The notes beneath the pieces are model-generated. The model was given only the letters and a program-made list of their open reading frames with translations. It had not been told where the DNA came from and made no database searches. DNA of 64,000 nt from Chlamydiota bacterium (lineage in GTDB: Bacteria; Chlamydiota; Chlamydiia; Chlamydiales; JAAKFR01), in the NCBI GenBank assembly GCA_013287335.1, contig JABDDZ010000001.1, forward strand, positions 3,045-67,044. The letters run 5' to 3'. This document shows positions 1 through 3,000 of this stretch, one piece after another (the first letter of the stretch is position 1; the number at the start of each line of letters is the position of its first letter). Both the position numbers and the translations under genes were made by a program.

Positions 1-3000
1 TACGCGAAGGCTTGCTGCGGAGATTCCAAGATAGTGCTGTAATTCTTTCAGGAGGTCCTGTTCAATCTCCTGCTTTGTCTCGGCCTGCACCTGGCTTGCC
101 ACCTCTGACAAGAGATCGACCTCCATTCCAAGGTTTTCCGTGCGGGTTTCTATGACTTTTGTCTGAAGAAAAGGGGACTTACTAGCTTTGGCAATGAGAT
201 TATCGATCTCAACCTCCATTCTCAAAGCAATTTCTGCAGGCGGGTTTCCTTTTCTAAAGGCAGCCATTTTACGGTTCTTATACTCTTTAAGTGCATCCGG
301 GGTATCAAGTTCATACTCTATTGCACCGAACTGATCGTAAGGATGGTCTCCTGATGAGGAGATGATCACTCCCCGAAAGGGGAGAGCTTTTGCTTTGAGA
401 TTCTCAAGCGTCAGCGGCTCTTTTAATAGATGCTCACACAAAAGCTCCTCTCTAAAGAGGCCATCGATTTTTTGCTTAATAGACCTGTTAAAATGTTGAC
501 TTTTACGGATGGCCTGGTTTTTTATAGAGGAGAGAAGGGAGCCTAAAAGGATCTTGATCTGCGGGTTTTTATGATCGATTTTAGCAATAGATTGTCGGAT
601 TACATAAGAGGGAACAATAAATTCGATGCGCTGATGCATAACATAATCACGGTGGCGCAAGATTGTCTGAAAGTAGCTTCGGCGTAGCATTGTTTCATCA
701 ATAGTCATCAGGCCAATAGCATCGGGTATAAGATAGATATTAATTCCTGTCGTATGGACTTCATCTGCAAAGACAAAGTAGTCCTTCTCTGTAAGGCCCG
801 TTTTTTGAATCTCATCCGCCCGTGTTCCTCCAATCATGATGGGGGTATCATTTTCAAGTTTTAAAAGAGCAAGAGAATCAGGCGTTTTTTCCCCTTTGCT
901 TGCATCGATTGTGAAAAATAGGACGGGAATTCTAAGGAAGTCTCGAATGGCTTTGGCAACTTCATAGTTGTTCTTATCCTTAAAAAAAGCTCCGGAATCT
1001 AGCAAGCTTCGGAGGCGGTCCGGTGTGGGATGTTGACCAATAACCTTTTCCAGGATCTCTTCGATGGATCCTGTTTTAACCTCATGGATAGTATCTTTCT
1101 TATCATCTTCGGCGGCCCGCTTAAGGGCAAGGTCAGCAATCAGCCCCTCAGCTCCAAGGTCCCTCTCAAAAGAGGAGGAGAGAGCGTCATCATAACAGTC
1201 AAGATTCCAAGGGGTTCCACCCATCGCGCGCTTAGTAGAGAGCATTTTAATAAGAGATTGTCCGGTTGCGGTGATTCTTTCAGGATAATAGACAACCAGG
1301 TTTTCAATAGTCTCTGCTTCCGCAAGAAGAATATTCTCAATATTGGCATTCAGAGTGGCTGTGGCCTCTTTAAGTTTGCCTTTTTTATCTATCTCATCGA
1401 GAGGGACGCCTGTTAACGCTTTAAACTCTTTGGCTTCTAAAATTTCATCAAAAGGCTTAGTGTCGCGTTTCATATAGTATTCAACTTGAGCGCGATAGTG
1501 AGCTGCAAGGGCCTCAAGCTGTTTTTGTTCAATGCCGAAGAGAAGAGCAGTTTGAAAGTGGTAGGCAACGGCCTCATAGTGGTAGCCAAATTTATTTGTT
1601 GAGGGGGTATCTACAGCAATGTAGGGGACAACTTCTCCCGGTTTTCCGAGGGATTTAGCTCTCCCAAATTGCCTTCCTCCCGTTTTTTCAAAGGTGACAG
1701 GAAGAATGGCCAGCATCATATGCTTTACAAGAGCAATCTCATGGGAAGCTTCGACCTTCGCCTTATCGGGGGAGTTTCTTAAACTTCTAACATATTTCAA
1801 AAATGCAAAGTCAGCAGCATCCTCTTTGGTAAGGGAGGCTTCCCATATCGGGAACTGCTCATCGTCCGGGCAATCGAGCATCTTCTGGCAAGTCGAGTTG
1901 ATGCAGCCGCTGATATAACGGTAGAAAGAGGGGTGATGCTCAGGAGTCTCTTTTAGCTCTAATACCGACAGATTTTGGGTAAAGTGCCAGGCGACGGCTT
2001 TGCAAACACTCTCTTTAAAATCTGCCCTTTGCAAAAGAGTCTGCTGATTTTTCTGAAGGCGGATCAATTTTTTGAGATTAATTCTCTCACTTGCGCTGAT
2101 GGGTGCATCTTTTTTTGCGAGAATAGAGAAAATTTCCCGAATAAGAGCAATACGATCGGGTAAGATATGCTCGGGATCACCCATAGGAAAGTTCATCTCC
2201 TGGAGGATATAGAGCACAAGGTCCACCTCATCGATAAGAGCATCACCATTTTTTCGAAATATCAGTAAAATCCTGCGGAGCCCATTGATCTTATTTAGCA
2301 TTTCTTGAGTTACTCTCGAGCTTGAGCAGGCCTTATAGACAAGGTCCAAGAATTCGAGTTCCAGACATTGCAATGTTTCCGGTTTGACAATTAAAAAATC
2401 TCCCCGCTTCATCGTGCGTTCTAGCCTTTTTTCGATCTCCAAAATCATTTCGAGGTTTAACTGGTTTCGATGCACATCAATCTCTTCGGTCTCTTGATTG
2501 TAGAGGGCTTTGAGGGGTATACGTAAGTTTTGTTTCACAGATGGATATTGAGAAGAGGGGGTAATAAAAATGGATAAGCGCCCCTCTCTTGCACTTTTTT
2601 TAAGAATGATGAGAGCGAGGACAGCTGTTTTTCCACCGCCCATAATTAGCTGAATGACAATATCCTGGAATTGTTTAGTTTGTGGATCAAGTGTTAAAAG
2701 TTTGGCTAGGAGTCCTCCCTGCTGCGTACGGATGGAGAGATCTTCATGAAATTCAAAGAATAGAAGGTCCGGTATCTGATGCGGTGTTGAAAGAGTGAGT
2801 TCAGATGCAAGTCTTTGAACGTAAGTTTCTCTTGTTAGGCTAGAGAGGCCTTGGATCTCTTCGATCTTATTGCAGAGATCTCTTCCTCTTGCCAGAGTGT
2901 TTTTATAAATACCGATTGTAAGATAGAGTCCAATGAGGTTGTATAGATAGACAATAGTTGCATCTTTCTCTTCCGGTAACGCTACAGCAAACGGCTCATT

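Follow-up and report, generated by a model that had tools for sequence, protein, structure and literature searches.

The window analyzed here, i.e. a stretch of 64,000 nucleotides from contig JABDDZ010000001.1 of a Chlamydiota bacterium, opens on the minus strand with a giant gene, which in this assembly is present as two open reading frames (ORFs), termed ORF B (proximal) and ORF A (distal; Table 1). A first-pass annotation, made from the letters alone, had placed a P-loop ATPase core at 650–2700; the position was right, although the core, which is encoded on the minus strand within ORF A, is slightly wider (~574–2766). The available evidence is that this core is likely an ATP-driven motor with the architecture of superfamily 2 (SF2), belonging to the DUF3638(/DUF3645) family and forming part of a giant protein, probably anchored in a membrane, in an uncultured environmental chlamydia. 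DUF3638 is already a catalogued family, of which this is a new member; its core is shown here to be an intact, strongly conserved SF2 motor with an insertion of the SecA/XPD style.

Four motif strings noted at first pass were located in the translations of the window, and all lie in one minus-strand frame and in helicase order, as had been stated for IMGGGKTAV, IDEVDLVL, and MGGTPWN; the first bases of these are at 2646, 2235, and 1224, respectively, with that of HTTGINIY at 756. The distance from Walker B to motif III, estimated at about 330 codons, is exactly 330. In an alignment of 106 diverged relatives (26–52% identity), eight residues, i.e. Q350, G379, K380, D513, E514, Q1034, R1038, and R1040, are invariant in all 106 (ORF A numbering; the residue number in the fused protein is obtained by adding 1807). 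From their places in the motifs, these are the predicted adenine-reading Gln, the Gly-Lys of Walker A, the Asp-Glu of Walker B, and the Gln and two Arg residues of motif VI. Near-invariant residues include G702, P722, T852 (kept in 102 of the relatives), and Q1046, and a loop within the region separating motifs II and III, R.(Y/F)GR...PY..V..P....FG (G702, P715, P722, and G728), is similarly conserved. The invariance of the SF2 ATP-site residues across the 106 relatives argues for selection for ATP hydrolysis. In the region following the core, D.PY.QFG and EL..Y are kept in the aligned homologues. In motif V of the window protein, the Thr preceding the Asn position is replaced by Ile.

Profile searches assign the core to a family. 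Residues 328–553 of ORF A match Pfam DUF3638 (PF12340) with an E-value of 1.4e-21 and 77.3 bits, over profile positions 5–220 of 225, the Pfam gathering cut-off being 31 bits; a DUF3638-type P-loop family, one of those suggested at first pass, was thus the correct choice. Tests were extended to 21 very diverse family cores, comprising the window protein and 20 relatives, with DUF3638 matched by 20 of the 21. Among general SF2 profiles, ResIII was matched by 11 of these cores (best E 7e-8) and DEAD by five (best E 1.2e-5); ResIII, also proposed at the outset, hence finds support in the relatives but stays below threshold in the window protein (E 0.05–0.14), as does DEAD (E 0.0016–0.004). The other profiles proposed then fared less well, with SNF2-rel_dom and Helicase_C giving nothing at E up to 1 in any of the 21 cores. 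The SecA, DEAD_2, and Helicase_C_2 models were likewise unmatched in this set, and DUF3645 (PF12359), a short model of the motif V region, was not matched by the window protein. DUF3638 is the sole significant Pfam family in the full protein of 3,495 residues, so that the earlier description of a protein with no other familiar domains holds at the level of Pfam. Neither the single protein nor a family profile, when searched by sequence against the PDB, gave more than chance-level matches to PriA and HsdR (E > 1).

An exhaustive search against 1.84 billion representative sequences identified 1,679 relatives, compared with only four and two from a word-indexed search; most are 3,000–4,500 residues long and match around residue 2,000. 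Together with the Pfam score and the invariant ATP site, this places the motifs well past coincidence. NCBI already names one relative, 43–48% identical, as a "DUF3638 domain-containing protein." For the ATPase ORF, NCBIfam, PADLOC, and PHROGs returned nothing, which makes a known anti-phage defense or phage protein unlikely. The upstream ORF B gave weak coiled-coil-type matches and one unnamed PHROG family (phrog_6631, E 5e-6).

An AlphaFold2 model of ORF A residues 335–1065, built with a 21-sequence alignment, has a mean predicted local distance difference test score (pLDDT) of 89.7 and a predicted template modeling score (pTM) of 0.87. It contains two RecA-like lobes, the outcome that structure prediction had been suggested to probe. 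Lobe 1 has a strand/P-loop/helix arrangement at Walker A, with parallel strands ending in the Asp-Glu of Walker B; two return strands, separated from these in sequence, run into motif III, and a second α/β lobe bears motifs IV to VI. The large insertion that the spacing had been taken to imply is real, being an inserted domain of ~310 residues that is mostly helical with a small sheet and carries the near-invariant loop. When compared with the PDB using Foldseek, the model retrieves only SF2-type motors at the top ranks, with probabilities of 0.96–1.0 (0.66 for one XPD entry). These include DinG (E 1.8e-5; TMq, the template modeling score for the query, 0.29), SecA (E 4e-5 to 6e-4, TMq up to 0.40, probability 1.0), RIG-I (E 6e-4, TMq 0.24), and, at rank 14, RapA (E 1.4e-3, TMq 0.24), with CasDinG, XPD, MDA5, and UvrB also in the top 20. 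Other SNF2 structures (ALC1, SsoRad54, INO80, Rad54, Snf2, ISW1, and Chd1) are at ranks 25–47 (E 0.018–0.17), of which SsoRad54, Rad54, Snf2, and ISW1 occupy ranks 29–41 (E 0.04–0.13). Thus, of the earlier SF2/SNF2-like assignment, the two-lobed P-loop SF2 type stands, but the likeness to SNF2 does not, with no profile match, a lower structural rank, and the 330-codon gap against it. Much closer than any of these were predicted viral structures in BFVD, likewise compared using Foldseek, in which DUF3638 proteins of amoeba-infecting giant viruses, i.e. of Harvfovirus, Fadolivirus, Hyperionvirus, Hokovirus, and one Megaviridae sample, were matched with E-values of 2e-23 to 4e-15 and TMq of 0.48–0.65. 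These matches cover ~730–840 columns, from which it follows that the inserted domain is part of the family core and a hallmark of it.

The giant protein proposed at first pass is a single ORF of 3,495 residues in another assembly, but is divided between two ORFs in the present one. The frame of ORF A is open from 3786, with 1,256 residues visible in the window; the full ORF has 1,688 residues (P0155), the last 432 of which are outside it. ORF B is the counterpart of the N-terminal ~1,800 residues of single-ORF homologues, and its TGA stop comes directly after a C9 tract. A C8 tract at 3752–3760 would join ORF B to ORF A (...NATPPPEWTFLHF...), and, in a conceptual fusion lacking one C, residues 1–3062 align as a single segment to residues 1–2981 of the homologue P0010 with 38% identity, other homologues behaving similarly. 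Homologues are collinear across the junction, through the motif KKQL.FRLQ...AW..L.F. A protein identical to ORF B is recorded in NCBI and JGI, encoded on a contig of 78,028 nucleotides, and the 90% cluster to which it belongs also holds both a 1,688-residue protein, which is the complete ORF A, and a 3,495-residue protein, which is the exact fusion, from a Logan assembly of run SRR8433345. Over 12,190 nucleotides, this Logan contig (L080) and the window differ by a single base, the tract being C8 in L080 and C9 in the window. Because this independent, otherwise identical assembly has C8, the split probably reflects a homopolymer error or a length-variable tract, rather than decay. The giant protein is therefore genuine, with ~3,500 residues (~3,650 including the anchor described below), the C9 tract splitting its gene in this assembly. 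A programmed +1 frameshift at CCC_UGA was considered, but, given the identical C8 assembly, is less economical than variation, or error, in homopolymer length.

Only two G/C homopolymers of at least eight bases occur in the 64-kb window, and both are inside the giant gene (G9 at 3752 and G8 at 7643–7650); a third tract, C9, is present at the end of the 3,495-residue ORF, beyond the window (L080 ~13,468–13,476). The two C9 tracts change the frame between the N-terminal half and the motor half and between the motor half and the membrane anchor, respectively, with C8 being in frame at both. This pattern looks like that of phase-variable contingency tracts and may represent such a case, with homopolymer sequencing error as the alternative.

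Table 1. Features of the giant gene. Coordinates are those of the window; residues are numbered within each ORF; invariant refers to the 106-relative alignment; AF2, AlphaFold2.
Feature	Coordinates	Strand	Residues	Remarks
ORF A, distal ORF	1–3768	−		ATG at 3768; contains the ATPase core; overruns the window start
Post-ATPase helical and acidic region	1–573	−	ORF A 1066–1256	Continues past the window
RecA-like lobe 2	574–1188	−	ORF A 861–1065	Alignment, AF2 model
Motif VI, FQTILRHRDY	643–672	−		Q1034, R1038, and R1040 invariant
Motif V, HTTGINI	736–756	−		Family consensus H-T-T-G-T-D
Motif IV-like, LLDSGAFFK	979–1005	−		Lobe 2
Lobe 1 return strands and motif III	1189–1284	−		Alignment, AF2 model
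Motif III, MGGTPWN	1204–1224	−		Family consensus SGTPWN
Inserted domain, ~310 residues, between motifs II and III	1285–2211	−	ORF A 520–828	Alignment, AF2 model
FGR of the near-invariant loop in the inserted domain	1660–1668	−		
RecA-like lobe 1, first part	2212–2766	−	ORF A 335–519	Motif strings, conservation, AF2 model
Walker B, IDEVDLVL	2212–2235	−		Holds D513 and E514, invariant
Motif Ia, IFITPSSQ	2548–2571	−		Lobe 1
Walker A, IMGGGKTAV	2620–2646	−		Holds G379 and K380, invariant
Q motif, IRTQQ	2719–2733	−		Holds Q350, invariant
ORF B, proximal ORF	3749–9190	−	1,813 residues	Stop TGA at 3749–3751
Poly-C tract, C9 (G9 on the plus strand)	3752–3760	−		Separates ORF B from ORF A
Conserved N-terminal α/β and helical module	7361–8440	−	ORF B 251–610	Alignment, model
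Coiled-coil segment	8351–8803	−	ORF B ~130–280	Weak SMC/Rad50/JetC-type matches only

The regions flanking the motor are also conserved in part. The N-terminal module is present in 91 long relatives, many of which have the motif GGW..GHAM.Y.F followed ~125 residues later by QRSGTC, suggestive of a possible His/Cys catalytic pair, as in a peptidase. In the window protein, Tyr replaces the His and Asp the Cys, the latter change being shared with the closest subfamily. A model of the window copy (pLDDT 78.7) gave nothing significant in a fold search against the PDB, the best match being UBE2Z (E 7.7e-3, probability 0.38). Weak matches (E 0.046 and 0.31, respectively) were to LegA15 and AnkD, Legionella effectors that carry cysteine-protease-like domains. 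With the catalytic His and Cys replaced and the fold search of this degenerate copy unsupportive, assignment of the module in the window protein as a papain-like or CE-clan peptidase is not supported. A presumed link between the DUF3638 giants and a viral-tegument-like deubiquitinase domain proved wrong, the paper concerned tying that domain to Helitron RepHel proteins.

Past the window, ORF A continues into a conserved LPVFH.MQRP module and then QVP.L-type repeats. The 3,495-residue ORF stops at the second C9 tract (L080 ~13,468); with C8 at this position, translation would run into a proline-rich linker and then two hydrophobic segments (KITLVTVAILASLGFILMAGIGTFGIMG ... GLTAVGTGAGLISLGLVAFAIY). 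The hydrophobic pair is in frame in the close homologues P0005–P0015, and a strongly hydrophobic segment is found among the final 200 residues in 88 of 125 long homologues.

To assess the distribution of the family, an alignment of close relatives was used to scan a collection of bacterial genomes in which each species is represented once. Seventy-nine loci were found, the best at only 41% identity. Most are in Chlamydiota, including Simkania (four loci in one isolate), Rhabdochlamydia, Parachlamydiaceae, and Waddliaceae, with further loci in Puniceicoccales, Opitutales, and other Verrucomicrobia metagenome-assembled genomes (MAGs), and others in one Legionella sp. MAG, in two MAGs labeled Gammaproteobacteria and proteobacterium, and in one Anaerolineaceae MAG; a tblastn search of plasmids gave no match. 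The motor had been described as not a standard chlamydial feature, which is true of the well-studied Chlamydiaceae, but not of environmental Chlamydiota, in which it is widespread and multi-copy. The DUF3638 Pfam family is found in eukaryotes. From its bacterial distribution, the giant-virus matches, and this eukaryotic origin in Pfam, the family follows organisms with a life inside, or in association with, protists. The supposition that the organism is chlamydial is borne out by the GyrB encoded in the window, which has no relative above 78% identity and whose named relatives, at 70–77%, are nearly all Chlamydiales, Parachlamydiaceae, or Protochlamydia, the exception being one MAG labeled Verrucomicrobia. 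One paper lists DUF3638 as a domain of an expanded microsporidian gene family.

Taken with the conserved ATP site, the model suggests how the likely motor might operate. ATP would bind in the cleft between the two RecA-like lobes, contacted by Q350 (Q2157 in the fused protein), the Gly-Lys-Thr of Walker A (K380/K2187), D513, E514, Q1034, R1038, and R1040. Its hydrolysis would open and close the lobes, and the inserted domain, which occupies the position of the preprotein-binding domain of SecA and the Arch domain of XPD/DinG, may pass the movement, via its (Y/F)GR...PY...P...FG loop, to a polymer that could be a nucleic acid or a polypeptide. The C-terminal anchor of two hydrophobic segments, of Inc type, would hold the protein in a membrane, from which the protein, probably an effector, may work on material of the host at the surface of the inclusion.

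Several observations weigh against this proposal. Substrate, secretion, and localization to the inclusion membrane are inferred. The literature mentions of DUF3638 that were found include none of a functional nature, nor biochemistry for any member. With respect to sequence, the lobe 2 profile Helicase_C fails throughout the 21 cores, and DUF3645 is matched by only two of the 21, weakly (best E 0.0037). The motif V position that is Asp in 100 of the 106 relatives is Asn in the window protein; this change, with that of Thr to Ile, may weaken the coupling of ATP hydrolysis to lobe movement. The hydrophobic anchor is out of frame, behind the second C9 tract, in both assemblies. It may also be that the frameshift at the first tract is real, in which case the motor half would be made alone from the ATG at 3768, or not at all.

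With regard to what the motor moves, a possible, but tentative, alternative is that it is a nucleic-acid helicase or translocase like DinG/XPD or RIG-I, with the insertion serving as an Arch-like clamp for single strands. The lowest Foldseek E-values are to the XPD/Rad3/DinG group (1.8e-5 for DinG, then 9.6e-5), RIG-I, MDA5, and UvrB also being retrieved, and the relatives match ResIII and DEAD. In XPD and DinG, the Arch insertion separates motif II from motif III, the latter being of the SGT type, so that a large insertion at this point has a precedent. By contrast, global TM-scores are low, at 0.24–0.30 for DinG, CasDinG, and XPD apart from a single XPD entry at 0.16, the window protein lacks an Fe-S domain and matches to DEAD_2 or Helicase_C_2, and neither Fe-S cluster cysteines nor nucleic-acid-binding domains were recognized; a membrane-anchored giant of ~3,600 residues would also be an odd setting for such an enzyme.

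A rather doubtful alternative concerns localization, namely that the protein is not secreted, but is a cytoplasmic machine anchored in the inner membrane and working in chlamydial physiology, e.g. in remodeling of the envelope, of DNA, or during the developmental cycle. A C-terminal hydrophobic hairpin would anchor equally well in a bacterial membrane, and the flanking genes are housekeeping or metabolic. Set against this are the near-restriction of the family to host-associated lineages (Chlamydiota, Puniceicoccales and other Verrucomicrobia MAGs, and one Legionella sp. MAG), its presence in giant viruses and in eukaryotes, and its multi-copy, fast-evolving character (26–52% identity), as is typical of effectors.

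It is quite unlikely that the motor is SecA-like in the sense of gripping and moving polypeptide, with the insertion acting as a preprotein-binding domain. SecA does give the best global superpositions in the PDB (TMq 0.36–0.40), and, as a two-lobed, SF2-like motor, has further points of likeness in its DEVD Walker B, in the large preprotein-binding domain that separates motif II from motif III, in a motif III of the G(M)TGT type, in the GRGTD of motif V, and in its association with a membrane, which is also probable for the giant protein. However, scores of ~0.4 are about what two RecA lobes alone give, no SecA profile is matched, and no equivalents of the helical scaffold or wing domains were identified. 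The inserted domain of the DUF3638 protein is mostly helical and twice as long as that of SecA, and the whole protein is about four times larger; the structural match fits the shared motor only, and there is no relationship at the sequence level.

The proposal that the gene is a decaying pseudogene, in which the motor is no more than a relic and the C9 frameshifts are real and fixed, is improbable. The frameshift in this assembly, the anchor left out of frame in both assemblies, the Asp to Asn change in motif V, and the loss of the His and Cys of the N-terminal module would all be in keeping with decay. By contrast, there are no further stops or indels across 10.5 kb, the eight invariant residues of the ATP site are all retained, and the C8 assembly carries an intact ORF, which points to homopolymer error or a switchable tract instead. 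The first-pass reading, an SNF2/Swi2-type DNA-dependent remodeling ATPase tracking on duplex DNA or chromatin, is very improbable, since its points of likeness (an SF2 fold with a Q motif upstream of Walker A, an (S/T)GTPxN-like motif III, and the match to RapA) are outweighed by better structural scores for DinG/XPD, SecA, and RIG-I, by the failed profiles, by the lack of any recognized DNA- or histone-binding domain in a Pfam search of the full protein, and by a motif II–III gap of 330 residues, which is ~25 in SNF2 proteins.

Elsewhere in the window, the genes directly upstream of the giant gene (9247–11752, minus strand) encode a class I S-adenosylmethionine-dependent methyltransferase, a small unknown ORF, and a type III polyketide synthase (chalcone/stilbene synthase-like), the methyltransferase and synthase being a secondary-metabolism pairing that is unusual in chlamydiae; L080 has these neighbors as well. 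A second giant ORF, of at least 3,590 residues, runs from 53229 to the window end at 64000 (plus strand) and beyond, with no Pfam match at E up to 0.01, no Walker A, and no similarity to the DUF3638 giant by BLASTP. Also on the plus strand are an ORF with SPW repeat and vitamin K epoxide reductase (VKOR) domains (23558–24898), adjoining a gene for an NAD-dependent epimerase/dehydratase, and a 1,184-residue protein (36848–40402) with a C-terminal family 5 solute-binding protein (SBP_bac_5) and an N-terminal extension of ~700 residues without a Pfam match. No tRNA or Rfam elements were found in the window.

The DUF3638 proteins are among the largest of environmental chlamydiae, some genomes having several paralogues, and the conserved motor offers concrete targets for biochemistry, i.e. 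K2187A, E2321Q, and the (Y/F)GR loop. Location in the inclusion membrane, if confirmed, would make them the first proteins of Inc type with an ATP-driven motor, and the poly-C tracts allow phase variation to be tested in a chlamydia that has not been cultured. A broader proposal, speculative and on the whole unlikely, is that the DUF3638 giants of chlamydiae associated with amoebae and protists, verrucomicrobial symbionts, Legionella, giant viruses, and eukaryotes form one horizontally exchanged class of host-manipulating machines, each a membrane-tethered SF2 motor bearing the inserted domain specific to the family, mostly with an N-terminal His/Cys module (perhaps a new type of peptidase), poly-C slippage switching the halves and the anchor in the present case.

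With respect to known systems, a long gap between motifs II and III has, to our knowledge, precedents in SecA and XPD/DinG, but none in SNF2. Such resemblances may hint at how the motor works, not at family membership, the profile tests for those families having failed. The anchor resembles that of Inc proteins in having two hydrophobic segments of ~20–30 residues, ~20 residues apart, in a bilobed arrangement, which is also present in close homologues. Most Incs, however, are small with an N-proximal anchor, whereas here the anchor is at the extreme C terminus of a protein of >3,000 residues, and is out of frame in this organism. The DUF3638/DUF3645 proteins of giant viruses are likewise very long; lobe 1 is over the PF12340 threshold, and the whole core, including the insertion, superposes with theirs, even though the short DUF3645 model is not reached by the window protein. 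The name "ubiquitinyl hydrolase 1" given to viral members in UniProt is an automatic label, and nothing in the present analysis supports that activity. The chlamydial protein differs from its viral counterparts in being bacterial, in its C-terminal Inc-like hydrophobic anchor, and in the QVP.L-type repeats of its tail.

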